Below, piece after piece: positions 3,555-63,999 of a stretch of DNA of 64,000 bases. The DNA comes from Escherichia phage vB_EcoP_PE007: sequence record OQ938542.1, one strand, 5' to 3'. Numbering within the stretch: position 1 is the first letter of the stretch; every line of letters begins with the position of its first letter. Below the pieces are notes generated by a model that did no database searches, was not told the DNA's origin, and saw nothing but the letters and a program-made list of their open reading frames with translations. Made by a program: the position numbers and the translations under genes.

Positions 3555-3809
3555 ATGATTATTACATATCCTACGGGTAAAACTGTGGAATATATGAAGC
3601 ATACAATTCAAGTGCCTCATTGGGTTAAGTATATAGCATTACTACCTCGCCAATATAAGAGTGCTAATACCTCACTAATAGGATTCTCTAAGAAGCCTAA
3701 GCTAACAGAAAACAATATCTGGGTATCCTCTGGAAGACAAGAAGAGATTGGTTTTTGTGATTTGAGTATTGTCGATAATAACATCTATGGGACATTGAGA
3801 AAGGTATGA
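3555..3809 (+). CDS. hypothetical protein
   Basis: 84-aa ORF. Confidence 0.45.
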   Translation: MIITYPTGKTVEYMKHTIQVPHWVKYIALLPRQYKSANTSLIGFSKKPKLTENNIWVSSGRQEEIGFCDLSIVDNNIYGTLRKV

Positions 3810-40300: not shown

Positions 40301-43300
40301 AGTACTATCCGGGTCAGCCATGAATGATTCGACGGTCAGATTCTTAGTAACATGCGTGTAGTATTCCTGTGCACGAGCCATAGCAGCAGGGTTAATAGCA
40401 GCCTCGGTAGCCAGTGCAGCAACAATGTTAGTAAAGAGACGCTGTTCCTGCATATTCATGGTGAAGCCATGTGCCTGAACATCACGAGTTACTTTAGTTG
40501 CATTTACTACTGCATCAGAGAACTTACCTTTACGAATTACTTGCTGTACTGGTTCTGAACCAATGTAGTTAGTAATCAGCTTATCGAAGGTTTTCCCTAG
40601 CTCTTCCAGACGAGTATTGTCACCGTATGCTTTGTTATGGAACAAGGTAGTATCTTTAGCTACAGCAGTAGTAGGGGCCTGCCCACGCATTACTACAGCA
40701 GAGTTAAACAGTAAGCCAGAGAACATATCATCTGCATTAGCAGGAGCTTTCTTACGTCCGAATACCAGACGTTTGATTGCTTCATATACAGCCTGAACCA
40801 TAGTTTTAAGTGCAGTGGTTTTCTTCTGCTTACTTATAAGTTCACGGTTGGTTAAACCCCAAGCCATGTACTCATTCAGTGCAGCAGCTTTAGCCATCGC
40901 TGGTTCAATAAAGCCATTAGACAAGTGACCATTAATGGTATTCAGTGCATTAGCATATGCTTCACGTACTGCCGGAGATTCATCCTTAACATCCAGAGCA
41001 CGGAACTGATTCATCAGGTCTTCAATATTCTGTACTGCTTCATTAGGAGTACCTTCATAGTGAGCCAGTACAGATTCAAAAGTAGAAGCATGTACTAATT
41101 CATGAACCAGAGTCTCTAAGGAAGGAGTAACTAAGTAGATGGTTTTATCTTCAAAGTTAGTCCAGCCATATGCATTACCAGCCTCAGCAGCTTCAATATC
41201 TTCTGGTGCTGGGCGAGTAATATTCTTCTCAATAGCGTAGGCATCCAGTTGAGAAGGCGTACCGTAAACAACCTTATAGTCTTTAGCAGCAAGAGATTTC
41301 TGTATTTCTTTCAGTACTGCTTGTTGTTCAGGGGACATCTCTTTAGCCAGTTTAGTAATGGCAGCATTAGACAGCAGACGTACACCAGACTTCAGTACAC
41401 GACCGACCTGTTCCATTGCTGGCACTTCTTTCACTGGTTCTGCTTTAGCAGCACGTACTGCATCACGACGCTTGTTTAATTCAGCATCAAACAGTTCGTT
41501 CAGCTTAGCTACTTGCTGGTCTACAGTCAGACCTTCCAGAGAGATTTTACCGTTGTTCACATAAGGAGCACCAACAGCAGCCATCTGGTCAACAGTGACT
41601 TGTACCTGGTCCATTACCTTGTGGCGAATATCTACACCCAGAGCAATATTACGCAGATTACGTTCAATCTGTTCAGCACCAACACGTAACAGGTCATCAG
41701 TAGCACCCTCACGTTGGTCGTATTCCAGTGCAGATTTAGCGATAGCTTGTTTGGTTTCATCAGACAGTTTGCTGAAGTCTACGTTCTTCATGAACTTAGC
41801 AAAGGAGTCATAAACATTCTTGATAGGGTTACCCTGCCAGGAAGTATATACAGCCTCATTAGCTTTACGGCTTGCATCAGTAATGTCATTAATACCAATG
41901 TTCATACCATCAAAGATTTTCAGGGTATTCTTCGGAGCACCTTTCATAGTAGAAAGGGTCTGCATCATCATGCCATCACCTGTACCGATGGTCATAAATG
42001 GAATACCTGCTACACCTGCCTGTGAAGGAGCATAGATGATCATTGGCACACGCATACGGTCATCTAAGTTGGTAGCCAATACTTGGTTAGCAACATCAGT
42101 ATTCTCACTACCAGCAATGTAGAAAGTCTGTGAACCAGTCTCAATCATTGGAGCCAGTGGAGACAATGAAGCCTGGATTTCATTCAGTTCTTTCTGTGTT
42201 AAGAAATCACCTTTCTTCCATGTTGGGTCTTTTTCTTTTTCTGCCAGCTTAGCCTGTACAGCTTGTTGGAACATATCCTGCAATACCAGAGATTGAATCT
42301 GAGTAGCCTTCTGTAAGTTCTCAGTAGAATACATCAGACCCTCACCAACAGTATTTCGGATACCAGTACGCATTGGTTCAACGAACAGATGAAGCATGTT
42401 CTCTTGTAAGTTCTTCAGAGCATTACCGGATACAGTAAACTTCTGAGGGTCTAACTTACCAGTCAGAGCACCATCTACCTGCTGAATAGACAACTCACCT
42501 TTACGCATAACCGGAACATTACCAGTTAGTGCTTCCATAGAAGTAAGGAAAGTATCCAGCATAGCCTGAGCATCAGCCTCAGACGCAGCCTCCTTACCAA
42601 ACATAGCCATAGCTGGGGAAATGCTAGGGTCAGCAGCACGGGCTTGTAGAACGTCACTGAAGCGTTCGTAGATGGTATCAGTAATTGCACTAACCATCTT
42701 GCCAGCAATACCACGAGCACCAGAACCATAGATGGTAATGGTCAGTGGGTTTTTAGCGATACCACGTTTCAGGTCCAGAGTACCATCTTCATTAAGATTG
42801 AAGTCTTTAATGAACAGGTCCATTAACTTCTGAAGATGCTTCATCTGGTTCGTAACAGGAACGTTGTTACGGTAAGTATTGCGTAATTCATTCAGTGCCT
42901 GTTGCAGACTATTAGTAGATGCTTCATACAGGTCAACACTGTCATCATGCGAATGATGCTCGTTCATAGTCTTGCCAGCTTTACCGAAGAACAAGCCACC
43001 CTTAGCAGTATTCTTAATCCAGTCTGAAGTGAACTTACCACCAGTCATTAATACCATTGCGTTGATTGGTCCGTTGGTTACACCATCGGCTTCAACGTAC
43101 AGTGGGGTATTAAAGTTAGCACGGTCATCACTGTTAAGGTAACGGGCATATTCCATAAGAGCCATGAGAGCTACGAATGATTTATCATTCCCCAAGGAAG
43201 TCTTCAGAATATCCACTGCATTAGCAGGTAAGTGACCAGACTTATCAAACTCAACCATCATATCAACAGCAGGTTTCAGTTTACCTTCCAGAGCTTTAGT

Positions 43301-46300
43301 CAGCTCATCTGACATAACTTCACGGGACATTTTATGAACTTTAATGCCTAATGCCTGAGCCAGTCCAAGCTGGAAGTCAGAGAACGTTTGACTGTTTTCA
43401 TTACTTAAGTCGATGGTAGAGAAGGTTGGAAGGATTGCTTCACGAACCAGCTTACTGGATTGTGGGTTGTTCTTACCAAGCATCTGCATACGACCTACAC
43501 GGGTCATGTTGTAGCCGTAGTGAATAGGTGTATCCAGTCCATTCTCCTGTTCCTTAATTTGATTGATTACACCAAACAAAGAATCATATGCCATGGACAC
43601 GGACAGGTTCTTACCTTCCAGTGATTTAGCAGTATTCACATTAAGCAACTCTGGGGTAAGAGCACCAGCACCCATTAATTCCAGAATGTTGTCACGACCC
43701 AATGCTTCATAGAAGTTAACCATAGGCATATGTACACGAAACTCAGTAGCTTGTTCTGCTTTGAGAGCAGCTTTCTGTTCCGGGGTATTATTAACAGCAG
43801 GGTTACGTAACTGAGTTTGAGCCACGGAAGGAATGTCATCACCCAGATACAATTTCTCTACTGGTTCTAAAAGGACAGTTTCCTCAATAGCAGTAGGGAA
43901 TTTATTAATGGCATCGTTATCATCCAGCTTCTCAATGGTATACAGACCAACAGTCTTATTAGATTCTGGGTCAATCTCAGACACATCTAACATGGACTCT
44001 TTAACTTCACCCATCTCAATAAGGGAAGACAGAATCTCTGTAGCCATTGCCATTGGGATACCCTTGGTATACCCCAAAGGTGCATTAGGATTACGATTCA
44101 AACCCCAATAGGATTCAATCTTTTGAGCTAGTGAGTTAGTAGCTTCAACCAGGGTCTGAGCATTCTCGAAGTCAGCCAGAATACCTTCTGGTAGCAGAGA
44201 TGCTTCCACACCAGTAATAGCAGCTACGTCTTTCATGTCTTTAACAGCAGCATTCTGTGTAGCAGTCAATCGCCATTGCAGACCAGCAAGTACAGCAGTT
44301 TCTAATAGCTGGTCATTGAACTTAAAGGTGTCACCATCTTTCTCTACGATGTTAAGTAACTTACCACCTACCCAACGGTTAGCCTCAGTACCTTCCGCAA
44401 AACGTTTACCAACGTTCTTGTTAGCAAGGAACTTAGCCAGACGGTCAGACAGAGTAGTCTTCAGAGTTTCACCAAACTCAAATAAGTCCTGGTAACGCTT
44501 AATCACATCACTTGTGAGAGCGTTATTTTCTTTTTGAGTAAATGCTTCAAAGCGAGCAGCAGAAGACAGTGCTTTCTTAACATCAGTCAAAGGAGACTCA
44601 GAGCCAATGGTACGAGACTTAGGTTCTTCTGGAAGACTAAATGCTTTAAGGAACTGGTTCGGTGTCTTGTCATTGTTGTAGACAGGGAACACTGTTTCCA
44701 TTTGAGATAAAGGTTTACCACCAACGGTATAGTCTGCTTTCAACTGAGCCAGTGATACTTCTTCCTTCTCTACATTATTGGTATTACGCCCAGACGTATC
44801 TACACCAATCTGAATCAGTGCATTGTTTGCTTCTACGAATGATTGAACAGTATTGAATTGTTCAGGAGTCAGCTTCTGATTATCAAACAGTTGTAATGAT
44901 ACAAATGGTTGCTCACTTCCTTTGTAGAAAGTGGAGCGTACAGCACCAGTATCCAGAGACATATCACGGTAACCATCATGACCAAATACATCAGACAGAC
45001 TGATATGGTCACCATTGGAACCAACAACAGTACCATCATCAAAGAGCCAAGGACTCTCCTTACGGTCACCATACTTATTAAGAGTATCCTGTGAAATAGT
45101 ATTCTCTTTCACATAAGAATCTCTTTCAGATTCAGTAGGCTGTTCAACGGTATCCTGTTTTTCAGATTGGTTCTCAGGTTCTTTTACAGTCTGTGGTTTA
45201 GACTCTTTAATAGTAGGTTCTGTTTTAACAGCTTCACTAACAGAGGGTTTAGTCTGTACAGTAGGGGTAACTGGTTCCTGTTTTGTAACAGGAGTTTCAT
45301 CAACCTGATTCACTGGTTCATTGGTCTGTTGGGATTGAGCAGCATCAAGATTGCCCTGACGGAACTCTTTAACTACCTGGGCGGCAGGCTTGTCCAAACG
45401 TGAATCCAATGGGGTAACTTTCACATGAGAAACATTAAGCTCCGGGTAAGCCGTAGCAAGTGCGTTAGCAATATCAGCTACGGTCTTGGCTTCCAGTCCT
45501 ACTTGCTGGGCAAACTTAACAGACTTGGTATCATACGGATTGACACCGAGGCCAGTACGACTACGTACCCATTCACGCGAGGGAGTAAGAGCCTGATAAT
45601 GGACAGACTTATTCTTATCCGCATTCCCAGAAATCAAATGCTCATTCAACGCTCCGACCTTATTCTGCATGTGCTGGGCGAACTTCATAAAATCGCTCAG
45701 ATAAGCGGAGGCCAAATCGAAGTTACCAGAGTTATACGCAGAACGAATGCGTTTCGCATGTTGCAACGCAGAGTACTGTCCTTCATTAGAACGAGACTCA
45801 TCGGTTTTAATCTGTTTACTAACAATATCTTGAGGACGTAAGCCTAGTTCTTCTGCTTTAGCGTCGAACTCTCGTGCACCCTGTAATAAGGCAGCAGCAG
45901 ATTGCAGGGCAGCACGTTGACGATTCCCCAGTGTAATCTTACCTTCACTTGCATGTTTCAGAACCATGTTCACTGAATCTGCATCCAGCACTTCTGGAGA
46001 TACATCAGCAGCCATAGCAATGTTGTTTGCTTGGGCTTGGTTAGCTTCTTCAGTAGCTTTCAGTTTACCTGCTTCAGCCTGTTCCTGAATCATGGAATGG
46101 ATGGCACGGAATGCACGAAGTACCTTCGGTGTATTCTGAACGTTAGCCATCAGGCCGGAGAATTGGTCTACGATTGCAGCAGCAGGGGAACCTTGTTCCA
46201 GATTAGCCAAAGCACCCGGGTCACGGTTAATGAAGCTATCCATAGACATGATATTGTCATACATCTGGATTGCAGCTTCCATTTGAACGTTAGGGTCTTC

Positions 46301-48055
46301 GGCAGTATTAACCAAGTCAGCCATCTTCTGAATAGCTTCTACACGGTTAGTGGAACCAGAAACAGCTTCACGGATTGCTGGGTTAGTTTGTTCCAATTCT
46401 ACCGGGTCAAACTTCATTGCCTGAGTTAAGTCAGCAGCATACTGGGTAGCAGCAGCTTTCTCTTCTGGAGAAATATCCATTGCATCCACTGCTTCCTGAA
46501 CAGTTGCTTGAGCTTGTTCTGCCTGAGCAGTAGCTTCTTGTGCAGCAGCGTTAACCGTAGCATCAGATACGGGGGATGCTTGTTCATTACGCTTAGCAAC
46601 TTCTTCCCCACGTTGAACCAGGATGTTAGTAATAGGTGAAGCTACTTTTGCTAGTGCCTTACCAGCCAAAGAAGCACCAGCCAGGGTAGTACGTACAGCA
46701 GGACCAACGGCAGCACCAGCAGCCTTAACAGTTGCACCAGGAGCTTGAGCAACTCCAGCAGAACCGAAGCCATACAATGCACCCAGACCAGTTTGTTCAC
46801 CCACACCTTTAAGCAAATCACGCTCAGCATCTACATTGCCATGAATTGCCTTGTTTTGTGCAAACTGACTTGTACCAGACTGGATACCTTCTTCTACAGT
46901 CTCACGCAGCATGTTAGAACCAGCACCAGCCAGTGAACCTACCTTAAGTGGGTTAAGTTCAAACTTGGATACCAGTGGAGCAGTAAGAGCAGCAACTGGA
47001 GCAGTTAAGCCAGCAGCAGTGATACCTGTTTCAGATGCAGTCTGGCGACGTGCTTCTTCAGGAGACAGACCGTCTTTAATATGCTGTTGGTATACAGGAG
47101 ATTTAGCAGCCAGTTCACTGAATGGCATTTCCATAATTTCATTAGCAGTCTGTTGGTATGCACCACCAGCTTCCATACCACCAATTGCTATAGCAGGTGC
47201 AGCAACACGACCAGCAGTCTGTGCAATACGTGCAGGACGATAACCTAATTCAGCAGCTAGGGTAATACCCTTAACAGCTTTATCACCACCTACCATTACT
47301 TTACCAAGTGCAGATACACCACGGATAAGTGGACCACCTGTAAAGAGGGAACCAACACCTTCACTCAGTCCGTCAGAAGCAGCCATACCATTATCAAGTG
47401 TGTTAGCAACAGAATCAAAAGCGTCACGACCAATACGAGACAAGGAGGCAACCAAATCGCTCCCCCCATTTTTGATATCTTGTTCATAGAGCTTCTGGTT
47501 CTTCCGTGCAGAAATCTGGTTCTGATTCTGAACAACTTTACGTGTAGCATTCAGTGCATCAGACTGTAGATTGTGTACACCCTCATTCAACCAATCCATC
47601 CCGGAAGCAATGGTTGCCCCGGCATTATTATTGACCAAACCTGCGCCAAGAGCAGCAATGCCCCCAAGGGTATTAGCAACACCAAGACCAACACCAGAAA
47701 GAGTATCGCCAAATGCTTCTGCGTTAGTACGTTGTTTAGATAAGTCCTGACGTACAACATCAGCAGCATTAGCTCGGCTATTAAGAATCTGTAAACCTTG
47801 CTCATTACCGTACTTATTAATGATTTCTAATGGGGAGGCTTGAGTGAAATCTGCCTGAAGTGAACCTGGTTCGAATGCACCGATTCCAAGATTACCTACT
47901 CGTCCAGTCTGGAGATTGTAAGCATTCTCTGGGGTTAATTGGAAAGGGCTTTGCCCTTGTGCAGCTTGCTTCTGAGAGGTTGCAGTAGAGACATCGACTT
48001 GCTTAGCATTAGTGATGCTGTCTGCGAAACCTGCCAGACGGTCAAATGTTGACAT
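37301..48055 (-). CDS. virion-encapsidated giant RNA polymerase (N4 gp50-like vRNAP)
   Basis: single uninterrupted 3584-codon ORF; ATG at 48055 with AGGAAA RBS (track ORF starts at upstream TTG 48073). Confidence 0.8.
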   Translation of the reverse strand: MSTFDRLAGFADSITNAKQVDVSTATSQKQAAQGQSPFQLTPENAYNLQTGRVGNLGIGAFEPGSLQADFTQASPLEIINKYGNEQGLQILNSRANAADVVRQDLSKQRTNAEAFGDTLSGVGLGVANTLGGIAALGAGLVNNNAGATIASGMDWLNEGVHNLQSDALNATRKVVQNQNQISARKNQKLYEQDIKNGGSDLVASLSRIGRDAFDSVANTLDNGMAASDGLSEGVGSLFTGGPLIRGVSALGKVMVGGDKAVKGITLAAELGYRPARIAQTAGRVAAPAIAIGGMEAGGAYQQTANEIMEMPFSELAAKSPVYQQHIKDGLSPEEARRQTASETGITAAGLTAPVAALTAPLVSKFELNPLKVGSLAGAGSNMLRETVEEGIQSGTSQFAQNKAIHGNVDAERDLLKGVGEQTGLGALYGFGSAGVAQAPGATVKAAGAAVGPAVRTTLAGASLAGKALAKVASPITNILVQRGEEVAKRNEQASPVSDATVNAAAQEATAQAEQAQATVQEAVDAMDISPEEKAAATQYAADLTQAMKFDPVELEQTNPAIREAVSGSTNRVEAIQKMADLVNTAEDPNVQMEAAIQMYDNIMSMDSFINRDPGALANLEQGSPAAAIVDQFSGLMANVQNTPKVLRAFRAIHSMIQEQAEAGKLKATEEANQAQANNIAMAADVSPEVLDADSVNMVLKHASEGKITLGNRQRAALQSAAALLQGAREFDAKAEELGLRPQDIVSKQIKTDESRSNEGQYSALQHAKRIRSAYNSGNFDLASAYLSDFMKFAQHMQNKVGALNEHLISGNADKNKSVHYQALTPSREWVRSRTGLGVNPYDTKSVKFAQQVGLEAKTVADIANALATAYPELNVSHVKVTPLDSRLDKPAAQVVKEFRQGNLDAAQSQQTNEPVNQVDETPVTKQEPVTPTVQTKPSVSEAVKTEPTIKESKPQTVKEPENQSEKQDTVEQPTESERDSYVKENTISQDTLNKYGDRKESPWLFDDGTVVGSNGDHISLSDVFGHDGYRDMSLDTGAVRSTFYKGSEQPFVSLQLFDNQKLTPEQFNTVQSFVEANNALIQIGVDTSGRNTNNVEKEEVSLAQLKADYTVGGKPLSQMETVFPVYNNDKTPNQFLKAFSLPEEPKSRTIGSESPLTDVKKALSSAARFEAFTQKENNALTSDVIKRYQDLFEFGETLKTTLSDRLAKFLANKNVGKRFAEGTEANRWVGGKLLNIVEKDGDTFKFNDQLLETAVLAGLQWRLTATQNAAVKDMKDVAAITGVEASLLPEGILADFENAQTLVEATNSLAQKIESYWGLNRNPNAPLGYTKGIPMAMATEILSSLIEMGEVKESMLDVSEIDPESNKTVGLYTIEKLDDNDAINKFPTAIEETVLLEPVEKLYLGDDIPSVAQTQLRNPAVNNTPEQKAALKAEQATEFRVHMPMVNFYEALGRDNILELMGAGALTPELLNVNTAKSLEGKNLSVSMAYDSLFGVINQIKEQENGLDTPIHYGYNMTRVGRMQMLGKNNPQSSKLVREAILPTFSTIDLSNENSQTFSDFQLGLAQALGIKVHKMSREVMSDELTKALEGKLKPAVDMMVEFDKSGHLPANAVDILKTSLGNDKSFVALMALMEYARYLNSDDRANFNTPLYVEADGVTNGPINAMVLMTGGKFTSDWIKNTAKGGLFFGKAGKTMNEHHSHDDSVDLYEASTNSLQQALNELRNTYRNNVPVTNQMKHLQKLMDLFIKDFNLNEDGTLDLKRGIAKNPLTITIYGSGARGIAGKMVSAITDTIYERFSDVLQARAADPSISPAMAMFGKEAASEADAQAMLDTFLTSMEALTGNVPVMRKGELSIQQVDGALTGKLDPQKFTVSGNALKNLQENMLHLFVEPMRTGIRNTVGEGLMYSTENLQKATQIQSLVLQDMFQQAVQAKLAEKEKDPTWKKGDFLTQKELNEIQASLSPLAPMIETGSQTFYIAGSENTDVANQVLATNLDDRMRVPMIIYAPSQAGVAGIPFMTIGTGDGMMMQTLSTMKGAPKNTLKIFDGMNIGINDITDASRKANEAVYTSWQGNPIKNVYDSFAKFMKNVDFSKLSDETKQAIAKSALEYDQREGATDDLLRVGAEQIERNLRNIALGVDIRHKVMDQVQVTVDQMAAVGAPYVNNGKISLEGLTVDQQVAKLNELFDAELNKRRDAVRAAKAEPVKEVPAMEQVGRVLKSGVRLLSNAAITKLAKEMSPEQQAVLKEIQKSLAAKDYKVVYGTPSQLDAYAIEKNITRPAPEDIEAAEAGNAYGWTNFEDKTIYLVTPSLETLVHELVHASTFESVLAHYEGTPNEAVQNIEDLMNQFRALDVKDESPAVREAYANALNTINGHLSNGFIEPAMAKAAALNEYMAWGLTNRELISKQKKTTALKTMVQAVYEAIKRLVFGRKKAPANADDMFSGLLFNSAVVMRGQAPTTAVAKDTTLFHNKAYGDNTRLEELGKTFDKLITNYIGSEPVQQVIRKGKFSDAVVNATKVTRDVQAHGFTMNMQEQRLFTNIVAALATEAAINPAAMARAQEYYTHVTKNLTVESFMADPDSTNPADRYYAQQKFDTIMGANNIEFDAQGRSSLLPTFVGLAMVSEEVRKVLADIPVMKADKKSGNTVDAMLTNIGTAAMASLNARVAGDTKATNVQEGMDALAQTIMQTSLNAESFYDSVATPTGNAIDRANQYLVDSIDVLSTRALEGAREVAANTKNPLVKGAAHAAQLIAAIATEKNGAIVAEGVMAAMNQGKVWQPFHDLVNDLTGRTKSNASVYDLIKAVRAQVQADRQQFREHLPTTIASKFSRKLTNDEWKAMHTGMGKTDLAVLRDTMSLAEIRDLLTDQKIVDREVNKLEADLQKQAGRNWPLINRKSKQLAQYMINGTVGNNLLRNATAISRLLGERKTTRSVVDVAQLDKLITLYALEAMNKTDREMLSSLAQTEIEGMDFATSYLVGQRKDEMAKAKSDTRATLNQYKGYIPTENKQGVNLIVAEDSQFADLIEKSYVRLGTYQGSSANRGPARSYYFAPVQAQAPFSQGILQNVRNTAGGVDLGTGFTMGTMVAGRITDKPSVDRITKALARGERGNEPLLPVYDANGNVVAYEQSIDPNMLKHIEGENHLARAIGVWRGRQVEEAKAQRFNDMLIENLHSMYENDIKMSASNKSQYVNLLGSKLDPVTADALKLMNSETRQKAESLFGPGELWVRRDMLNDALGYRAASVGDAWSGNSRWSPETLDTFKKAMLGVFGNRAYKYVMGGENLVQNLVKEAKTLIVVKSVVVPAVNFLANLYQMIARGVPVKNIAKSIPQKTAEINQYLKSRLRQVDAEAELRAATNPNQIRKLKAEIQSISDSHKRLSIWPLLEAGEFSSIADAGIGRDDILITEGKLHEYMDKLADKLPKSVRNAGRYALITKDTALFQGIQKTVEYSDFIAKAIIYDELTQRKGKTREEALGRVTEEFINYDRLPGRFRGYMESVGLMWFYNFKIRSAKVAVSMIRNNPVHAAIAMLAPTPTMFGNVGLPIQDNIFSIAAQGNLGYSFGFGQGLRAHTLNPWLNLTN

Positions 48056-48118
48056 AGCATGTTTCCTGTTCAAACTTATATCGTATATAGGTAACTTACT
48101 CTACAGTAAGCCAGTTAA

Positions 48119-54152: not shown

Positions 54153-54794
54153 TTAATCGTTAAGGCTACCAGCAGCAATCTGTGCTTGAGCCAGTTGAGC
54201 TAATTCAGCTTCAGTCAACGGAGGCAGTACTTCAATGGAGAACTCACGTGCTTCTGTTGCACGGATGTCCGGTAAGCCATTCTTACCTTTACGAGTCGTA
54301 ATGTTGATGAACTTGCGTTCTTTAAGGAACTCGTAGATACAGTACGGAATATGATAACCATTGTCGGTTACTTCACCGAATGGAACAAACTTACGTACAG
54401 TACCCATATATTCGTTAGCTACGGTGATAATTTCACCCGGCAGGTCTTTCTTCTTAGGGTCAAGGTTCTGGATACGTACACGAATCAGTCGAGTCTGTTC
54501 TGCACGAATCTTCTGACCCAGGGTCATCTTCTTAACGCCAGCTTCTTGTTTTTCGCCAAGTGGGTTAACAGCAGCTTCTTCAACTACTGGTTCATCTTTT
54601 ACTTGTGCAGCTTCAATCTTCTCACGAAGCTTCTCAACGGAAATGTTGTTAGAGAACTTGATATTCATCAACGTTGCACGTTGCTTAAGAACTTCAAGTT
54701 CGCTAGGCATTGCAATATCGTTAACGGTATCTTCGTTGCCCTGTACGTTCACTTCTACGTCAGTGGTCGGTTTATCGTTAATGCTCATGTTCAT
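54153..54794 (-). CDS. virion structural protein (N4 gp55-like position)
   Basis: 213-aa ORF downstream of capsid gene; start may be ATG 54788. Confidence 0.45.
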   Translation of the reverse strand: MNMSINDKPTTDVEVNVQGNEDTVNDIAMPSELEVLKQRATLMNIKFSNNISVEKLREKIEAAQVKDEPVVEEAAVNPLGEKQEAGVKKMTLGQKIRAEQTRLIRVRIQNLDPKKKDLPGEIITVANEYMGTVRKFVPFGEVTDNGYHIPYCIYEFLKERKFINITTRKGKNGLPDIRATEAREFSIEVLPPLTEAELAQLAQAQIAAGSLND

Positions 54795-54819
54795 ATTTCC
54801 TGTGGTTCATTTAGTTTTA

Positions 54820-54850
54820 TTAAGAGGGGGACTTATGTCCCCCTTGTTTT
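54820..54850 (-). terminator. stem-loop terminator downstream of major capsid gene
   Basis: agggggac-ttat-gtccccct 8-bp GC-rich stem just 3' of capsid stop. Confidence 0.55.
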
Positions 54851-54861
54851 ATTTCGGACTA

Positions 54862-56064
54862 TTACAGAGGAGCAACAGTCTTAATCAGAGCCAGACGTTC
54901 TGGGCGTTTAACCAGGATACCATAGTACCACTTGATAGAACTGAAGCCAGTTTCACCATACGGGTCGTTACGGTCAGCAGTTTCTTTACCAGGCATCTTA
55001 GTCATGATGGTGAACTTAACAGACTTACCATCAGTCTGGAAGCCAATGGTAGAGAAGGAGTCGTCACCAACTACCAGCATCGGGAATACGTCGTAGTGTT
55101 CCTGACCAGATACCATAGAAGTACGATAACCCGGGTTAGTAGTAACCTGAGCACCAGCACCTGCCCAATGAAGCATCTCAGGAACCTGGATAATACGGAA
55201 CTTATCAATACAACCGATTTCACCATTCATCAGAGTACCAGCATCAGCATAGTGCTGAACTTCGATGAATGCTTTATTACCAAACAGGTCTTTCATCGCT
55301 TTCAGTTCTGGAACCAGTTCAGAACCAACGTACATTACACGAGTACCACCAAGTACTTTGGTATCTGTCAGTTTAGAACCAGTGATGATAGTAGTCTGGG
55401 TCGGAGTACGGTTCTCAGTAAGAATCTGGTCAAGACGCATCAGGTTCTTATAAGAAACTACAGACGGGGTAGAACCTTCACCAGTGATGGTTGCATCAGA
55501 GACAGCAGCACCTGCATACAGTACAGTACCAGCAGCAGCCAGCAAGTCTTTCTGGAGAACAGCTTCAGTCAACTGTACAGCACCGTTCATCAGTTCACGA
55601 GACAGGTGTTCTTTCAGCTGGTCATCGGAATCAAAGTCCAGAGACTCTTGGGTAAATTCGTAGAAGAAGCCGAACTTATGAATGGAACCTTCACGAGCCA
55701 GACGAGTGAAGCCTACACGGTTAACACGACCACCATTCTCTGACAGCAGAGGCAGTTTAGAGGTGATGTTACCAACGTCTTTGGAAGAACCGTACAGGTT
55801 ACCGTTAACGATGGTAGCACCATTAGCATCAATACCCTGGTCGTTAATGTTCTTATCATCGAGCAGAGGAACGTACTCGTACACCTTAACAGTCTTGCCG
55901 TAGTTCTTCGGCATGTTAACGGTGTTAGCCAGAGGCATAAAATACTGGTCTTTACGAGACTGAATAATAGCCTTCTTCAGCCAGTAATAGGTATTCATCT
56001 GGTCGGAACCAGCACCATCAATGCTAGATTTCTGACCGTCAATTGGAGCGTTATAGTTTAACAT
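54862..56064 (-). CDS. major capsid protein (N4 gp56-like)
   Basis: 400 aa between portal/scaffold-like genes and tail genes; followed by strong hairpin; size matches N4 MCP. Confidence 0.6.
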
Positions 56065-57678: not shown

Positions 57679-59949
57679 TTATAAGTTCATACCAAGAGCC
57701 GATGCTGGGTCTTGGCTAGGGTCATAATGTTGGGAACTAAGTGAATAAGTCGGGTCTTGCTGTGCAGCTAAGTCACGTTCCTGTAAAGAGTTCCCGTTAG
57801 TCAAAGCGTTATATCCGACAGCAGCAGATATGTTGGGGGTAGTTTCACCTTCTTTAGTAGGTGTTGTCAACGCCTTAGTTATTTGAAGGTTCTGGTTTCC
57901 TTGAGATTGTGCTTTTTGTTTTTCCATATCACGAGCATGTTTAGTACCAGATTCCTGTTCCAGATAATCCAGGTCTTTAAGGTCACCACTAGAAATAGCT
58001 TCTTTAGCCTTAGCATTATTGAGTGCAATCTTACTTTTCAACTCTTCATTCTCAAGCTGTGCTTTTTGAATTGCCAATTGCTTAAGCTGTTCTTCCATAG
58101 GGTCTGGTTGTGGTCGCCAGGTACGTAATTCATGAGCAAGGTCTGGCATACGCTTAAGTTCTGCAATTTTAGCTACGAGAGATAATGTAATAGTCTGGTC
58201 AACTGTATTACCTAACGTTTGAACCATGAAGCTCAAGTCCTGAGATTTCTGGTTATCAATTTCAGCAGTATTAATATCAACCTCAATATCGAAATTACCT
58301 TTAAGGTCTTCACGGTTAATTTCTACGTACTGTTCATTGGTAATACGTACTACTTCCTTCTCAGATAAGAATACGGCATTCATTGCACAAATCTTAGTAC
58401 CAATGTCTGCCATACCCTTAGCTAATCGACGAAGGATTGCCATCTCACGTTTGGATGCTGCATCGAGTGCACCACGAATACCAGCAGCCACATCTCCATA
58501 AGCTGCACCAGTTACACCTCCAGAGAATGCTTTAACACCAGTTAGTGCTTCTGCTTCCTGGTTCTGCATCTGAGTCATAACTATTGCCGACTGAGGTAAC
58601 TCAGGGAACTTATGTTCCATAATGGCCTGACTAGGGTTGCCCTGCATTGGGTTATACTCATAGTCTTGTCCGTCATCATATCGACGTCGGTTCAGAGTAT
58701 CTAACATCCCTTTAGGATAACCACGTTGCCCGTTTGCACTTCGACCTAACAGGTCAATCATCCCACGCATAGTTGCACCAAGAATTGCTTGGTTATCCCC
58801 CAACAGTTCAGCATCAGCTTCACCAAAGAGTTCACGTTTACGGGGCATGTAAGGAACAACTACCAGAGGTAACTTACCATCTGGGAACGGGTTCTTCTCC
58901 ATACGAATAAGAGTAGAACCAATCCAGGTAGCAACAATTGGTTCCAGTGAACCGTCATCATTAATGTCGTAAAATCCCCAGTATTCATAAGCAATGACTT
59001 TCTTACGAAGTGCATCCTTAAACTGGAAATCACCAGGAGTTTTACTTTCATGGTCTGGGTCTGTCATAGGACTAGAACTTTCCCAGTCAATCTTATCCAG
59101 GTTGTGGTAACGGTCCTTGTTCTTCATGAGGTCTGCTTTGCAAGTCTCAAATGAGATAACTGCATAAAGAGCCTTATCCAAATCACCATTACAGCTTGGG
59201 TCAATAACTACGTTGTTTGGGTTAAGCATTTCAACAGTAGGTCTGTTAACCAGTGCTTTCTCTACTTCAACTTCAGTAACACCTGTCTGGATTGCATAAG
59301 TAGCTTCCCCAGTTTCATTGAAGTAATTAACAGCTTCCTTAATATCTTCTGGCATTGTTTCGTCGTACTCACGGGGATTCTCTGCCTGAAGCTGTAGTGC
59401 CTGCTGAAGAATATCTGCTTGTTCTTGGTTCTCAATTGGATACAACTGAAAGACTGGTGTTTCTGTTTTAATCTTAACAGTCTTACGTTCCCAACCAATA
59501 CGAGCAATACCAGTACCGTCATCTACGACACTATGTACGTAATCATCCACCAGTTTTACTTTATTAAGCTGGGTACGGAATTGGTAGTTAAGAACTAATT
59601 CATTCTGACGTGCAGCTAACTCATCTTCAAAAGTAACGGGAGTTACCTTAAAGAGTTTATTAGATGAGAGGAATGGTTCAGACAATGGTGCATAACGCCA
59701 TTCTGCCTGACGGCGAACCAGTCTAGGTTGGACTTGGGAACGCCCCTTCACCTTTGGAGGTTTAGCCTTACCCTTAACTTCCATCAAGTCATTCCACTCA
59801 CGAATCTGGGCCATGATTGCATCGTGAGCAGGTTTAGCTGATTCCAAATCACCTTTCAGTAATTGGATACTTGGTTCCTTCTTCCAGTCCGTTAACTTCT
59901 CTGATTGAGCCGGGTCTGGTAAAGGCTTAAAAGTGTCTTGGTGTTCCAT
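57679..59949 (-). CDS. portal protein (N4 gp59-like)
   Basis: 756 aa immediately upstream of scaffold-like/capsid genes; AGGA RBS. Confidence 0.55.
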
Positions 59950-59951
59950 AG

Positions 59952-60458
59952 TTATTCCTGTTCAAAAAGTTTACGGTCAGCCTGGATCTGTTTACCCAAC
60001 TCAATTAGTTGGCTGTCACGGAGTCTAACAGTTGCCCTGAGTTCTTCAACCAAACGTCTGCCTTCTTCAAGATTGTTGTCGAGTCTGGCTGCATGGCTTG
60101 CAAGACTTCTGCACTCAAAGGTTCCGGTTTCGGCTTGACGTTTATATACCGATGCTCGTCTTTCAGACTGTTGCATCCGGCTGTCATAATCACTGCTAAC
60201 GCGAGCAAGCTCGCTTGCGTAATTACTCTCAGCCGTCTGCAACCGGGAAGTGAGTAACCCGACTTCATAACTATGGTTTCTTTGGAGAGCATTGTATTTG
60301 TCCTGTAATTTTTGTGTTGCCTTTTGGTCTTCAACCTTTTGGGCATCCCACTTCTTTTGAACAGTAGACTGTCCGTTGGAATTACCCCAAAAGTAAATGG
60401 TGGCCCCGAGGACCACCACTAGAAGATAAGGCCAACCTTTAGAGATTAGCATCTTCAT
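59952..60458 (-). CDS. i-spanin (Rz-like)
   Basis: ATG 60458 with GGAGG RBS; N-terminal TM ([21 protein letters not shown]) then coiled-coil periplasmic domain; contains embedded lipoprotein ORF. Confidence 0.55.
60005..60268 (-). CDS. o-spanin (Rz1-like lipoprotein) embedded in i-spanin gene
   Basis: alternate frame inside 59952-60458; signal peptide plus lipobox-like ...[12 protein letters not shown]; Pro-rich mature part. Confidence 0.5.
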   Translation of the reverse strand: MKSGYSLPGCRRLRVITQASLLALAVIMTAGCNSLKDEHRYINVKPKPEPLSAEVLQAMQPDSTTILKKADVWLKNSGQLLDSVTAN

Positions 60459-61074
60459 TACATGCCTCCAGTGGCACATTGCCTATTCGGTTAGCTATCC
60501 AACCATACGTAAAGTCTGGCATGTTTAATGAGGTGTAGTGGTTCAGTTGTTTAGCATCTAGTAACTTAATCATTACCCGACATGCTGCAACTTTGCCTCG
60601 TTTTTTCTGTAATGCTTTATATGCATTAACAGTACTTACACCGACTTTACCATCAACCTGTATTTTAGGGTAGTCTTTGCCATCACGGGACATTTCATTA
60701 AGAGATTGCTGTAACCACTTAGCCGGACGAGTTACACCAGTGTTAACACCGGCATCTACCAGCTTGTGTGTTACAGCAGGAGATATATCAGCGAAGGCTA
60801 CGAAGTTAGGCTTAAGTACGTAGTCATCGATGTATATCTCAGCAGCCATCTCTTTAGATAAACCCTTCATAGAACCATCCCAGCCGTACTCAGTAGCCAG
60901 AACTTCTTTATGGGATTTAGCTACAGATTGGGTAATTCCATGATTAGTTTCCCCACCTGGGTCACGAGGATTATTTACATAACCCCCTTCCATATAAAAC
61001 ACTGCCCCCAGGATAGCAGCGACAACTCCTCCCACTGCACCACCTTTCGCAGCAAGTTTCTGTTTAGCTTTCAT
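60439..61074 (-). CDS. endolysin, GH108 N-acetylmuramidase with N-terminal signal-anchor and C-terminal peptidoglycan-binding region
   Basis: 211 aa; EGGYVNNPRDPGGETNHGIT is the GH108 hallmark; N-terminal Gly/Ala-rich weak TM GGAVGGVVAAILGAVFY. Confidence 0.7.
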   Translation of the reverse strand: MKAKQKLAAKGGAVGGVVAAILGAVFYMEGGYVNNPRDPGGETNHGITQSVAKSHKEVLATEYGWDGSMKGLSKEMAAEIYIDDYVLKPNFVAFADISPAVTHKLVDAGVNTGVTRPAKWLQQSLNEMSRDGKDYPKIQVDGKVGVSTVNAYKALQKKRGKVAACRVMIKLLDAKQLNHYTSLNMPDFTYGWIANRIGNVPLEACNEDANL

Positions 61075-61324
61075 GTGAATCTTCCTTTGGTCGGAATCGT
61101 ATTAATCTGCCTATGATGTTTAAGGCAAACAGTGCGATTACAATATTGGAGCCATGGGGAATATCTTCCAGGATGTGACGAGGTAATCCTGTCAGCATTG
61201 GTTGAATGATATCTATGGCAGAAAACATAATTAACCCGAGCGTACTAATCTGGATGGATGCCCACTTCCAGCATCTTTTCCAGTTAGGTACTAGCTCTAC
61301 CTTTCTTTTTAGCCTGCGAACCAT
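61064..61324 (-). CDS. holin candidate (two TM segments)
   Basis: ATG 61324 with GGGAG RBS; 86 aa, two hydrophobic helices; overlaps endolysin start by 11 nt. Confidence 0.45.
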   Translation of the reverse strand: MVRRLKRKVELVPNWKRCWKWASIQISTLGLIMFSAIDIIQPMLTGLPRHILEDIPHGSNIVIALFALNIIGRLIRFRPKEDSHES

Positions 61325-61638
61325 GCGAATATCTCCCGTCTTGCAGCAGCCAATACACCAATAATTGCACCTGCCCCAGCCCACACCCACTTACCAAAAA
61401 TTCCAGCACCAACAACTTTATGCTTAATGGTGATGAACTCTTCAATAGTAGGTTCATTCTTAGCTAAGCTATCCTCCACATTCTTTAGTCTATTGCCTAT
61501 GTCATTTATTGAATCCCGTAGTTCTACCAGAGTTTCCTCCAGTTTCTCACGGTCCTGCCTGTCCCTTGTCTGGTTCTCAAACAGAGTCTTCAATCGTTCC
61601 TCCAGTCTGACTAGAAGCAGTTCGCCTGATTCGTTCAT
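61309..61638 (-). CDS. coiled-coil protein with C-terminal transmembrane anchor (lysis-associated?)
   Basis: 109 aa; helical N-terminal region, C-terminal GAGIFGKWVWAGAGAIIGVLAAA. Confidence 0.4.
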   Translation of the reverse strand: MNESGELLLVRLEERLKTLFENQTRDRQDREKLEETLVELRDSINDIGNRLKNVEDSLAKNEPTIEEFITIKHKVVGAGIFGKWVWAGAGAIIGVLAAARREIFAWFAG

Positions 61639-61854
61639 AGTATTACCGTAGTTGTGTAGTTAGAATCCCCAATAGGGTCGTATCATAAGATGACTCTTAG
61701 ATAATACTTAGTATGATGGGGTACATCCAGACATAGTGTCTGGTAGCAACCCATGGTGGATGGTATTTAGTTAGGTATGTTTAACATATCCGGGCAAGTA
61801 ATTACCCTAACAGCAGTATCGGTTAGGGTAATGCAAACAGTAAACTCTATATGA

Positions 61855-61878
61855 GAAAAGGCCCAAACTGGGCCTTAG
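61855..61878 (-). terminator. intrinsic terminator downstream of tailspike gene
   Basis: aaggccc-aaact-gggcctt stem with T-run on - strand. Confidence 0.6.
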
Positions 61879-61884
61879 TTTTAA

Positions 61885-63999
61885 TTAAATCAATCCATAA
61901 ACTGCATTGTGTATTACGACACCCCCAACAACTGAAGAAACATTAAAATTAATTTCAGCTTTGTAGGCTCCTTGTGGAACGCAATCCACCAAAGCATAAA
62001 AGTTGAACGTGTTTACCACTGGGATGATATATCCTATGGAATCCGCAACAGTATTTCCTTGCTGGTCCAGGAATCTAATTGACGCCAGGGTGGTTGTTGT
62101 ATTTTTAGCCCAAAAACCAAGCTGAAAATAACGACCCGGTTCACAATCAATGATTGTTTGGGTGAAGTTAGCTGCTGCATCTGCTGATGGTACAGATAAA
62201 ACAAAAGAAGTTGTAAACATTAAATTGTTAGGAACATCGTTTGCTGTAGTAGCAGTGACAACGCCTGTTCCAGTTTGCGAGAGTGTCCAGTTAGATGTGT
62301 TTTCAAACTGTCCTGAGCCATTGCTAATGCTATTAATATAAGGGCTTACAATGCTTCCTAGATTCCAGTTAGTTGTAATAAACCCTGCACGAGGGAAGCA
62401 CCCTCTGGACATTACTTTTTTGCTAGCGCCACCTATCAACTGTCTTGTAGCAAATCCAGTAGCAATCGTTGTGTTACCGTAGAGGGGCAATGAGCAGTTA
62501 TTTAAACTAACTACCCCGTCACCATTACTAACAATAGGCACTGTACTGTAGCCTTCCGGAAGCAGAATAGTAGAATCTTTAATACTGAGGCGTGAGCTTC
62601 CACTCACAGTAAAGCCTACAAAACTCTGCCCAGGTTGATACTCAATATTACCGTTAGCAAATACTAAGGTAGCATTACCACTTAATGCCACTACTGGATC
62701 GAAGTAGCCTGCCTTTTTACCTGCTGGTAATGAGCATGAATCAAAGATGAACTGCCCATTCTCAAATGTAAATGGACCCCCATTATCAACCATCCAGCAG
62801 TGGTTGAATTTTATAACCTCACCAGCATTAGCCGGGGAATTAAAGATTACAGAGTTAGTAAAACTGCGAGAAATGGTGCACTTATCAAACAGGATACGGT
62901 ATGCATTATCTTTAAACTCAATACCTGCGGTAGATATAAACCCGCAGTTAGATATACGTAATTCTGCTATCTCCCCTCCAGTACTACTGCCCAAGCACAT
63001 CTTTCGAGTACCTTTACCTACAAAGGAAATACCTGTTAATAGGGCAGTAGCATTAATGGCATCACGGGCTGTGTAATCTGTATTAGAATTGATTACGGTT
63101 AAGTAATACTCTCCTGTTACACCTTCCACTTCCGTAAGGGTACACTTATTGGCTCCTACTAAAGCCCCCTTAGATACATCCAGTACGATAGGTGTACTAA
63201 TAGTCCCTGATGTAGGTACAAGACAATCGTAACCGGCAGAGTTTACCTTGTTAATGAACGGAGCAATGTCCCCAGTACCAGTATAGCCTGCATCGTATAC
63301 CGTAGCAGTACCTTCAAAGAACTTACGCTTCCAGACCACACCTGCACCGGTGAAAGTTACAACTTCATCTACAGGAGTAGTATTAGGAACCGCAATCATA
63401 ATACCCCCACCAACGGAAGAACCTGAGTATGAATCTAGCATTACACTAGACCCTACTGTTGCTCCGACAGAGGCCAGGGCAGTTACGTCGGGTACACTAC
63501 CAATTAAAGTCATACCATCCTGAGATGCCAACTGAGCACGCAAATTAGGATCCGTTTGGGACTTCCAATCCGTGTTGCCAACAGGGTTGGCCCCTTCAAC
63601 AATAGTTACGGGTAGAGAACCTAAGTAGGTATAACCAATACCATTATGCATCAAAAGCTCATTTCGAGTATTTACTACTAAGCCCGTAGTAAATGAATCA
63701 GATAAGCATACAAACTCTCTACGTGCAGCAGCCAGTTCGCCTAAATCAATAGTACCAGCTGAATGAACCAGGACTGCGTGTTCGTTAAGACTAACAGCAG
63801 TAGTTCCTACCGGAAGTACAGGTAATGAGTAAGCACGTTGGGTAGCCTTATCATAAATTACTTTGTATCCACCCAAGTCCACACCTACAGAAAAATAAAC
63901 CACCTCATTCTGCTTAACACCAAACTTACGGGCAATGGCTTGCTTATTGGTAAGAATACCAGTGGAGCCTTTACCACCTTGGGAGAACATCTCGTTCAT
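61885..63999 (-). CDS. tailspike / receptor-binding protein with right-handed beta-helix (putative glycan depolymerase); start at window edge
   Basis: 704 aa; Gly/Ser/Thr/Asn/Val-rich repeats and NCGFISTAG...FDKCTISRSF...NHCWMVDNGG motifs typical of pectate-lyase-like beta-helix. Confidence 0.55.
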   Translation of the reverse strand: MNEMFSQGGKGSTGILTNKQAIARKFGVKQNEVVYFSVGVDLGGYKVIYDKATQRAYSLPVLPVGTTAVSLNEHAVLVHSAGTIDLGELAAARREFVCLSDSFTTGLVVNTRNELLMHNGIGYTYLGSLPVTIVEGANPVGNTDWKSQTDPNLRAQLASQDGMTLIGSVPDVTALASVGATVGSSVMLDSYSGSSVGGGIMIAVPNTTPVDEVVTFTGAGVVWKRKFFEGTATVYDAGYTGTGDIAPFINKVNSAGYDCLVPTSGTISTPIVLDVSKGALVGANKCTLTEVEGVTGEYYLTVINSNTDYTARDAINATALLTGISFVGKGTRKMCLGSSTGGEIAELRISNCGFISTAGIEFKDNAYRILFDKCTISRSFTNSVIFNSPANAGEVIKFNHCWMVDNGGPFTFENGQFIFDSCSLPAGKKAGYFDPVVALSGNATLVFANGNIEYQPGQSFVGFTVSGSSRLSIKDSTILLPEGYSTVPIVSNGDGVVSLNNCSLPLYGNTTIATGFATRQLIGGASKKVMSRGCFPRAGFITTNWNLGSIVSPYINSISNGSGQFENTSNWTLSQTGTGVVTATTANDVPNNLMFTTSFVLSVPSADAAANFTQTIIDCEPGRYFQLGFWAKNTTTTLASIRFLDQQGNTVADSIGYIIPVVNTFNFYALVDCVPQGAYKAEINFNVSSVVGGVVIHNAVYGLI

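Follow-up and report, generated by a model that had tools for sequence, protein, structure and literature searches.

The region 59952-61638 of Escherichia phage vB_EcoP_PE007 (sequence record OQ938542.1; the window referred to below is the whole stretch of 64,000 nucleotides that was analysed) very probably represents the lysis cassette among the late genes of an N4-like podophage from the genus Gamaleyavirus (Schitoviridae). With the same high confidence, and based on sequence comparison, we consider the cassette orthologous gene for gene to gp63-gp62-gp61-gp60/gp60a of N4. It consists of five tightly overlapping genes on the minus strand, flanked by tail-protein and portal genes. All ORFs named in the initial annotation of this DNA are found at their coordinates on this strand, and its reading of the locus as a lysis cassette holds for the ORFs, the spanin pair and the signal-anchor-release (SAR) endolysin, but probably not for the roles given to the holin and to the protein with a C-terminal transmembrane segment (TM). 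The cassette is of an already known kind, the ordinary five-gene type of the G7C/ECBP1 group, and holds nothing new in this respect. Its features are the following, in the direction of the genes:

61858..61876, no strand assigned: GC-rich, terminator-like hairpin flanked by T/A runs, shortly past the tail-protein stop (61885), at the upstream boundary of the cassette; function putative
61309..61638, minus strand: gp63-like protein, 109 aa, with a helical cytoplasmic N-terminal part, a Receiver motif (PTIEEFITIKHK) and a C-terminal membrane segment
61064..61324, minus strand: gp62-like protein, 86 aa, ATG at 61324 with the Shine-Dalgarno (SD) sequence GGGAG upstream; DUF7940, two TMs
60439..61074, minus strand: gp61-like endolysin, 211 aa, with a SAR-type N-terminus, GH108 and PG_binding_3
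59952..60458, minus strand: gp60-like i-spanin (Rz equivalent), 168 aa, PHROG 6197, with an N-terminal membrane segment
60005..60292 (or start at 60268), minus strand: gp60a-like o-spanin (Rz1 equivalent), in the +1 frame inside the i-spanin gene, with the lipobox MTAG-C

The window also contains a virion RNA polymerase ORF of 3590 aa, and the portal gene neighbouring the cassette is of the SU10/N4 type. The order tail protein, gp63, gp62, gp61, gp60(+60a), portal is common to N4, KP8, JWAlpha, Paxi, Frozen and Zuri. In N4 in particular, all five genes recur between tail and portal genes with order and strand unchanged and with overlapping starts and stops, and the N4 proteins are 55.4% (gp60), 58% (gp60a), 68.9% (gp61), 62.8% (gp62) and 67.9% (gp63) identical to those found here, with divergence between the two phages in the N-terminal half of gp63 as well as of gp60. 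Over positions 59700-61900, nucleotide identity to Escherichia phage ECBP1 reaches 96.6%, and at least 80% of this stretch is covered in 57 phage records. Among Gamaleyavirus genomes, those of ECBP1, Bp4, St11Ph5, G7C and EC1-UPM are 94-97% identical to the window at the nucleotide level over the whole region, and GenBank records of this genus annotate the genes as Rz/Rz1 spanins (gp60.2, gp60.1), N-acetylmuramidase (gp61), holin (gp62) and gp63. Apart from an additional ORF in the upstream spacer of Bp4-type genomes, only point differences separate these genomes from the window, such as 11 nt between the window and ECBP1 within the maximal i-spanin ORF (59952-60479, 528 nt). Some Gamaleyavirus records are mis-annotated in this region, with the i-spanin cut to 74 aa (ECBP1, Bp4) and gp63 given as a "tape-measure protein".

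An Rfam scan of positions 59500-62200 revealed no RNA element, its sole match being a sub-threshold chance hit to Clostridiales-1 (20.7 bits versus a gathering threshold of 48), and a scan for sigma-70 promoters returned 5 sites versus 5.0 in shuffled sequences, with no promoter assignable to the cassette. For three of the genes (i-spanin, o-spanin and two-TM gene), the likely true start lies inside the maximal ORF.

The orthologous genes have been studied experimentally in N4, where gp60-63 expressed from a plasmid lyse E. coli in ∼25 min (preprint: Awuah et al., bioRxiv 10.1101/2025.11.12.688109). According to the same preprint, gp63 and gp61 substitute for S21 and R21, and gp60/60a for Rz/Rz1. 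The pinholin gp63 complements S21, though not S105, kills cells when expressed by itself and is conditionally essential; gp61, which works with lambda S as well as with the pinholin S21, behaves in complementation tests as a SAR endolysin; gp60/gp60a complement lambda RzRz1 amber mutants and form a bimolecular spanin; gp62 can be deleted and is described as a non-essential lysis regulator with late, weak holin-like activity, although the results on it are equivocal in part, as complementation of the deletion phenotype did not succeed (bioRxiv 10.1101/2025.11.12.688109). Rapid lysers carry mutations of T65 and T71 in gp63, and SAR-domain mutants of gp61 such as G12E lyse early (bioRxiv 10.1101/2025.11.12.688109). 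Muramidase activity has been reported for N4 gp61, as cited in that preprint, which also cites the endolysin work of Stojkovic & Rothman-Denes (2007).

For the phage studied here, our observations concern gene content, domains, membrane segments, the lipobox, gene overlaps, homology and conservation, with membrane topology derived from hydropathy, the positive-inside rule and the lipobox pattern; all functional steps of the cassette are carried over by homology from the N4 experiments, across 55-69% identity, and should be read accordingly. Lysis would proceed as follows. The GH108 muramidase would be exported by Sec and then held inactive at the inner membrane by its weakly hydrophobic, Gly/Ala-rich N-terminal segment, while the gp63-like protein, anchored by its one C-terminal Gly/Ala-rich helix, would accumulate and eventually trigger, opening pinholes and depolarizing the membrane. 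Depolarization would free the SAR segment, so that the endolysin could refold in the periplasm and degrade murein all around the cell. The i-spanin, predicted to be a type II protein of the inner membrane whose periplasmic domain is helical, and the o-spanin, a predicted outer-membrane lipoprotein from the embedded +1 frame, would together span the periplasm and, once the murein is lost, fuse or disrupt the outer membrane. In this scheme the two-TM gp62-like protein would probably not be the main holin but an accessory regulator whose holin-like activity is weak and late. Such a system resembles S21/R21 of phage 21, in which a small-hole holin depolarizes the membrane and frees a tethered endolysin, and shares with lambda Rz/Rz1 the architecture of an embedded two-component spanin, yet no sequence relationship of the cassette to S21/R21 or to lambda Rz/Rz1 was seen.

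We propose that the gp63-like protein is probably the main pinholin. From the alignment it appears homologous to N4 gp63 including both the Receiver motif and the C-terminal TM, with 43 identities over the 49 residues 61-109 that comprise these two elements, versus 31/60 in the diverged N-terminal half. The Receiver, PTIEEFITIKHK, is identical to that of N4, including the two threonines that correspond to N4 T65 and T71, and is followed by a Gly/Ala-rich membrane segment (approximately residues 75-98, hydropathy peak at 80-98). The family to which the protein belongs, PHROG 5211 (3e-50), is one of unknown function, and neither Pfam nor NCBIfam HMMs gave a match; a single-sequence AlphaFold model is all-helical at low confidence (pLDDT 53). 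No clear SD sequence was found ahead of its start, and unlike N4 gp63 it has no alternative start at Met17. In S21 there are two TMs, and the first is itself a SAR helix. The putative pinholin of the window, in contrast, has a single C-terminal hydrophobic region attached to a large cytoplasmic domain, and does not belong to the S21 family, but it may act like a pinholin, in which case it would make small lethal holes that free SAR but not soluble endolysins. The initial annotation correctly described a protein with a C-terminal TM, but left it unassigned, as a possible antiholin or pinholin partner, a role at odds with that of its N4 homolog.

The gp62-like protein, which the initial annotation took for a holin candidate, is probably an accessory lysis regulator or a weak holin. 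It matches Pfam DUF7940 (PF25612; 50.9 bits versus a cut-off of 27) and displays the two membrane segments expected of this family (hydropathy peaks at residues 22-40 and 59-77); with charges of +8/-1 at the N-terminus and a basic C-terminus, both ends are predicted to lie inside. Its gene overlaps the stop of the gp63-like gene by 16 nt, and its own stop (61064) is in turn overlapped by 11 nt by the endolysin ATG (61074), as had been noted before. Since N4 gp63 is the pinholin and N4 gp62, 63% identical to the protein found here, is dispensable, the two roles had most likely been reversed, a correction that we base on homology. The opposite assignment, in which the SAR endolysin is freed by the gp62-like protein as the main holin (of class II or a pinholin) and the gp63-like protein is an antiholin or accessory partner, appears improbable to us. 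It draws on the label "holin" carried by PHROG 1356, which the protein matches at 3e-31, and by many GenBank records of gp62 homologs, on the N-in/C-in two-TM layout classical for class II holins and pinholins together with the overlap with the endolysin start, and on the behavior of N4 gp62, which kills cells after CCCP and slowly frees both endolysin types; moreover, the genus of the phage reportedly has no lysis inhibition, which would leave room for roles unlike those in N4. Against this assignment stand the complementation of the S21 pinholin by N4 gp63, the conditional essentiality of the latter, and the near-identity of its Receiver and TM with those encoded in the window. The reading that we retain is that of a gp63-like pinholin probably accompanied by a gp62-like regulator.

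The maximal ORF of the gp62-like gene reaches a GTG at 61390, and a long form of 108 aa starting there was considered as an antiholin-like dual start. This candidate finds no support: an SD sequence is absent, GTG stands in the window where the long N4 form has its ATG starts, and Paxi and Zuri have no such extension. That the frame of the long form is open is explained by the Gly/Ala/Trp codons of the gp63 TM, which overlaps it.

The identification of the endolysin as a GH108 enzyme, already proposed in the initial annotation, is borne out by matches to Pfam Glyco_hydro_108 (PF05838; 72.1 bits versus a cut-off of 21.2, 5.6e-20, residues 24-113) and PG_binding_3 (PF09374; 31.9 bits versus 24.6, 1.5e-7, residues 117-196), as well as to PHROG 315 "endolysin". 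The protein carries the string EGGYVNNPRDPGGETNHGIT, and its E29-G-G-Y...DPGGETNHGIT residues lie in the same register as those of N4 gp61 and PDB 6v3z, in agreement with the pattern EGGY...DPGG.T..G; we infer that it is a muramidase. Its structural relatives in the PDB, 6v3z (Sen1395) and 6v40, are TtsA-like GH108 muramidases of type 10 secretion systems that share the same GH108 and PG_binding_3 fold family (residues 23-197 aligned, E = 1e-27). The endolysin is nevertheless not a member of the TtsA-type equivalog of holin-associated N-acetylmuramidases (NCBIfam NF040573), with 58.4 bits versus a cut-off of 240, and differs from R21 in being a GH108 muramidase rather than an enzyme of the T4-lysozyme type.

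Residues 11-28 of the endolysin, GGAVGGVVAAILGAVFYM, are uncharged and 50% Gly+Ala, and follow four Lys within residues 1-10. Judged by its sequence, such a basic-flanked, weak, Gly/Ala-rich N-terminal TM would place the enzyme in the SAR class, in line with the earlier proposal and with N4 gp61 (69% identical), which behaves as a SAR endolysin. The segment, which we infer to be uncleaved, would tether the enzyme until it is released on depolarization. The hydrophobic stretch runs straight into the EGGY motif of the GH108 N-acetylmuramidase domain, as the SAR segment does in N4, whereas the aligned part of the 6v3z chain has a polar DEILGK before EGGY at the place where the window endolysin has GAVFYM. 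We find it very unlikely that this N-terminus is instead a cleavable Sec signal peptide, with secretion of an already active enzyme that is restrained otherwise: a layout of n-region and h-region is present and, by eye, the small residues L22-G23-A24 could fit the -3/-1 rule, but there is no polar c-region between the Gly/Ala-rich stretch and the catalytic EGGY, and the hydrophobic stretch already contains the beginnings of the Pfam GH108 match (residue 24) and of the alignment to PDB 6v3z (residue 23). Moreover, N4 gp61 associates with the membrane, functions together with a pinholin and, alone, causes slow, stochastic lysis, and charge insertions in its segment lead to rapid lysis, all of which speaks for a SAR endolysin.

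The spanin pair agrees with the initial annotation, which had recognized an embedded two-component spanin: the outer gene matches PHROG 6197 "Rz-like spanin" (3.4e-77), and the embedded one combines a lipobox with conservation and with annotation in related phages. The i-spanin, whose maximal ORF spans 59952-60479, likely starts at the ATG at 60458, six nt downstream of a GGAGG. It has an N-terminal membrane segment at approximately residues 8-25 (hydropathy peak at 3-25), and an AlphaFold model (pLDDT 77) predicts helices at residues 9-111 and 116-167 separated by a break at 112-115, consistent with a type II protein with an N-terminal TM and a largely helical periplasmic domain; the latter contains one Cys, Cys116. 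Pfam and NCBIfam HMMs gave no match to the i-spanin. A frameshift in this gene, suggested by the 74-aa annotation in ECBP1 and Bp4, was rejected, as the 168-aa ORF is intact in both.

The o-spanin gene (60005-60292) lies entirely within the i-spanin gene (59952-60458), at an offset of 190 nt and hence in the +1 frame, as does its maximal ORF (60005-60346). Two start codons come into consideration, the ATG at 60292, which is kept in ECBP1, and the ATG at 60268, which ECBP1 does not have, with no clear SD sequence ahead of either; the start is uncertain, 31-39 residues ahead of the lipobox Cys. The window o-spanin has no counterpart of the Met found beside the h-region in N4, and its signal peptide therefore has a long basic n-region. 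The TAG-C remarked on in the initial annotation as lipobox-like does match the PROSITE-type lipobox pattern, and the residue at +2 is Asn, not Asp, as expected for sorting to the outer membrane. The predicted mature lipoprotein has 56 aa, as in N4, and the homolog in Paxi is annotated as LipoP-positive. No HMM of Pfam, PHROGs or NCBIfam matches the o-spanin, and the support for it therefore comes from conservation in tblastn searches and from the lipobox. The embedded frame is kept as a protein in 158 phage records, down to ∼40% identity, from hosts of at least 10 genera; the lipobox Cys is found in the same place in 9/9 inspected genomes from several Schitoviridae lineages and is followed by a conserved INVKP..EPL....QAMQP.ST motif. 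In St11Ph5 and G7C this frame bears the annotation gp60.1; records of Paxi, Piffle and Pokken name it o-spanin. An open +1 frame of the 137 codons seen here is attained in no more than 2% of shuffles among synonymous codons and in 0.7% of resamples drawn by codon usage, which points beyond chance. That the +1 ORF is a chance open frame, the outer membrane being disrupted by another factor, is hardly credible: the silence of the HMM libraries, the absence of a clear SD sequence before either ATG and the occurrence of open frames of such length in 0.7-2% of shuffles would fit it, but protein-level conservation across these records, the invariant Cys with its motif, and the complementation of lambda spanin mutants by the N4 gp60/gp60a pair go against it, and for the case of a real o-spanin we regard the conservation of the frame, seen in sequence comparison, as more decisive than the shuffle tests.

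The related phage G7C has been reported to be without lysis inhibition. We tentatively raise the idea, itself rather doubtful, that the Receiver motif serves general pinholin gating rather than the sensing of superinfection, and that lysis inhibition in N4 needs factors from outside the cassette that are missing here. Three observations touch on this idea: the Receiver is identical to that of N4, the G7C-like genus is reportedly without lysis inhibition, and the ATGs of the long gp62 form are lost.

As the cassette is a near-copy (94-97% at the nucleotide level) of deposited G7C/ECBP1-type cassettes, its significance lies mainly in correct annotation. By homology, what databases call "holin" (gp62 type) is probably no more than an accessory regulator, and the real pinholin is probably the gp63-type protein, which carries the label "hypothetical" or "tail length tape-measure protein"; several RefSeq records of Gamaleyavirus lack the embedded o-spanin. 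Beyond annotation, comparing this genus, reportedly without lysis inhibition, with N4 might help to find what controls lysis inhibition in the latter and, should the Receiver indeed serve general gating, could locate the factors outside the cassette on which it depends.

The lysis cassette, whose genes we name after their phage N4 counterparts, lies entirely on the minus strand, with a tail-protein gene on one side and the portal gene on the other. Start-codon refinements aside, its coordinates and descriptions in the initial annotation hold, with the ORFs located on the minus strand.

Features of the lysis cassette and its flanks
61885-63999, minus strand, tail-protein gene, 704 aa
61858-61876, spacer, hairpin, GC-rich, terminator-like
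61801-61832, spacer, hairpin, perfect 11-bp stem, 10-nt loop
61716-61754, spacer, hairpin, 18-nt arms, 78% complementarity
61309-61638, minus strand, gp63-like gene, 109 aa
61064-61324, minus strand, gp62-like gene, 86 aa; maximal ORF up to GTG at 61390
60439-61074, minus strand, gp61-like gene, 211 aa
59952-60458, minus strand, gp60-like gene, 168 aa; maximal ORF up to 60479
60005-60346, minus strand, +1 frame of gp60, embedded ORF, 113 aa (maximal ORF)
57679-59949, minus strand, portal gene, 756 aa

The five ORFs are tightly packed, with overlaps between neighbouring genes of 16, 11 and 20 nt in succession and a 2-nt gap between the gp60 stop and the portal ATG. Good Shine-Dalgarno sequences lie upstream of the ATGs of gp62 (GGGAG, 61324), gp61 (AAGGAAG, 61074) and gp60 (GGAGG, 60458); none is evident at the gp63 and embedded ORF starts. 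The 246-bp spacer between the tail-protein and gp63-like genes (61639-61884) contains the three hairpins and no prominent sigma-70-like promoter. In the spacer matching window ~61640-61880, an insert of ~535 bp is present in Bp4, PD38 and Uz-1, and the Bp4 spacer (3535-4188 in the comparison locus, L003) has a 217-aa opposite-strand ORF, absent from the window, which matched nothing in Pfam or NCBIfam and could represent a mobile or accessory gene. Elsewhere in the window, in the structural-gene block, a 366-aa ORF (54643-55743, plus strand) overlaps a 400-aa ORF (54862-56064, minus strand) nearly wholly, and is probably a spurious antisense ORF.

Over a 2.2-kb stretch matched by 92 phage records, the window shares 96.6% identity with Escherichia phage ECBP1 and 94-97% with Bp4, PD38, St11Ph5, EC1-UPM and pSb-1. 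All five records with taxonomy retrieved (ECBP1, St11Ph5, Bp4, N4, KP8) are placed in the Schitoviridae, Enquatrovirinae, and ECBP1, Bp4 and St11Ph5 are classed in the genus Gamaleyavirus. The window also carries a 3590-aa ORF (37301-48073), the virion RNA polymerase that is a hallmark of N4-like phages. The N4 gene order is gp59 (portal), gp60, gp61, gp62, gp63, and existing annotation of relatives lists gp60.2/gp60.1 as Rz/Rz1 spanins, gp61 as N-acetylmuramidase, gp62 as holin, and gp63. By sequence and synteny the cassette is a member of the N4-type family; it is nearly identical to ones already deposited, the feature is already known, and nothing in the window differs from published relatives enough to surprise a specialist.

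The N4 cassette has been dissected in a preprint from the Ramsey laboratory, where plasmid-expressed gp60-63 lysed E. coli in ~25 min (bioRxiv 10.1101/2025.11.12.688109). The window proteins are 55-69% identical to their N4 counterparts, and 43 of 49 positions agree across the Receiver (the motif beside the gp63 TM) and TM region; together with the N4 results, this allows roles to be assigned. What is observed here is the set of genes with their domains, membrane segments, lipobox and homology; every functional step is inferred.

The gp61-like endolysin exceeds the Pfam cut-offs for GH108 (72 bits) and PG_binding_3 (32 bits) and also matches PHROG 315 "endolysin"; its closest solved structures are the GH108 muramidases 6v3z and 6v40, and it falls outside the TtsA-type NCBIfam equivalog (58 bits, cut-off 240 bits). 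Residues 1-10 include four lysines, and residues 11-28 (GGAVGGVVAAILGAVFYM), uncharged and 50% Gly+Ala, directly abut E29 of the EGGY motif. Since the Pfam match starts at residue 24 and the 6v3z alignment at residue 23, both within this hydrophobic stretch, the N-terminus seems to fit a signal-anchor-release (SAR) segment that joins the folded enzyme, and would fit less well a signal peptide that has a polar c-region and is removed. N4 gp61, 69% identical, complements endolysin defects with a large-hole holin and with the phage 21 pinholin S21 alike, gives slow, stochastic lysis alone, and acquires rapid-lysis mutations that introduce negative charge into its N-terminal segment, all properties of SAR endolysins (bioRxiv 10.1101/2025.11.12.688109). 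The gp61-like protein would likewise be a SAR endolysin, as initially proposed.

The gp60-like i-spanin (Rz equivalent) matches PHROG 6197 "Rz-like spanin" (3e-77), has a hydrophobic N-terminal segment, and is modelled with moderate confidence (pLDDT 77) as long helices 9-111 and 116-167, the break adjoining its single Cys116. The +1 frame of its 507-nt gene is open for 137 codons, a length attained in 102 of 5000 synonymous-codon shuffles and 36 of 5000 codon-usage resamples, which is suggestive but not decisive. Comparative evidence argues decisively that the embedded ORF is more than chance: tblastn with the 87-aa product found the frame kept in 158 phage records, at identities down to ~40%, from hosts including Escherichia, Klebsiella, Erwinia, Achromobacter, Pseudomonas, Stenotrophomonas, Burkholderia, Xanthomonas and Delftia, several records labelling it an o-spanin. 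The frame (...CNSLKDE...) matches the PROSITE-type lipobox pattern with Cys at the cleavage point, and the mature part has 56 residues, Asn at +2 and four prolines. All nine genomes inspected (window, N4, St11Ph5, KP8, JWAlpha, Paxi, Frozen, Zuri, ZC03) have an i-spanin-embedded ORF with a lipobox-type motif ending in Cys, then a conserved INVKP..EPL...QAMQP.ST; the Frozen LAG/C lipobox was read by eye, the pattern demanding a different residue at -4. The likely start is ATG 60292 or 60268. Because ECBP1 has ACG (Thr) in place of the window ATG (Met, MKSGYS...) at 60268, the genus-conserved ATG is 60292, the start annotated in St11Ph5, which leaves an unusually long signal peptide of 39 residues ahead of the lipobox Cys. 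In RefSeq, ECBP1 (locus L001) and Bp4 (1751-2257 in both) have an i-spanin of only 74 aa from an internal Met and no o-spanin; a frameshift was rejected, as the 168-aa and embedded ORFs are intact in both, leaving an annotation error. N4 gp60/gp60a fully complement lambda RzRz1 amber mutants (bioRxiv 10.1101/2025.11.12.688109), and by homology the window pair would be a spanin working like lambda Rz/Rz1, though unrelated in sequence. The embedded spanin claimed at the outset is thereby upheld.

The holin is a different matter, as the initial annotation gave this role to the two-TM gp62-like protein and left the C-terminal-TM gp63-like protein unassigned, roles that are probably inverted. N4 gp63 is lethal to cells and complements S21 but not lambda S105, marking it as a pinholin; its mutations to rapid lysis cluster beside the TM, in a "Receiver domain", and substitution of T65 or T71 hastens lysis, whereas gp62 is deletable, yielded none of >60 rapid-lysis mutants, shows holin-like activity late only, and was named "lysis regulator" (bioRxiv 10.1101/2025.11.12.688109). 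The gp63-like protein matches PHROG 5211 (function unknown). Its N-terminal part is helical and is followed first by PTIEEFITIKHK and next by the Gly/Ala-rich hydrophobic VVGAGIFGKWVWAGAGAIIGVLAA, with both threonines conserved. Homology to N4 makes it the most likely pinholin, with the gp62-like protein most likely an accessory regulator. A "pinholin partner" had been named as a possibility for the gp63-like protein; the error is partial and understandable, public annotation still calling gp62 a "holin". Several GenBank records (Bp4, KP8, Frozen) name their gp63 homologue "tail length tape-measure protein". The label is a propagated misannotation: judging from N4 gp63, this 110-aa membrane protein is probably a pinholin. 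Pseudomonas phage ZC03 (locus L010, 764-1247) keeps the GH108 endolysin and embedded spanin pair; upstream it has no recognisable gp62/gp63 homologue, and instead a 108-aa protein of unlike sequence whose N-terminal half includes a hydrophobic stretch, which suggests that the holin module has been swapped out within the Schitoviridae.

For the gp62-like protein, the family matches are Pfam DUF7940 (51 bits against a cut-off of 27) and PHROG 1356 "holin", and its two hydropathy peaks, charged N-terminus (+8/-1) and basic C-terminus predict an N-in/C-in topology. Its 5' extension (61325-61390) overlaps codons of the gp63 TM, has no Shine-Dalgarno in front, and opens GTG-GGT-GTG where N4 has ATG-GGT-ATG, a change synonymous in gp63. 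A "dual-start" long form has been proposed for N4 gp62; its ATG starts are missing from the window, and this phage may lack the form.

In its mode of action the cassette would resemble the phage 21 pinholin/SAR system, to which it is unrelated in sequence, and the putative gp63-like pinholin, with one C-terminal TM, lacks the two-TM/SAR-TM1 feature that defines the S21 family. The Receiver motif is identical to that of N4, although the related phage G7C reportedly lacks lysis inhibition (bioRxiv 10.1101/2025.11.12.688109). This leaves a mildly interesting loose end, in that comparing the genus with N4 might help to part pinholin gating from the lysis-inhibition signal.
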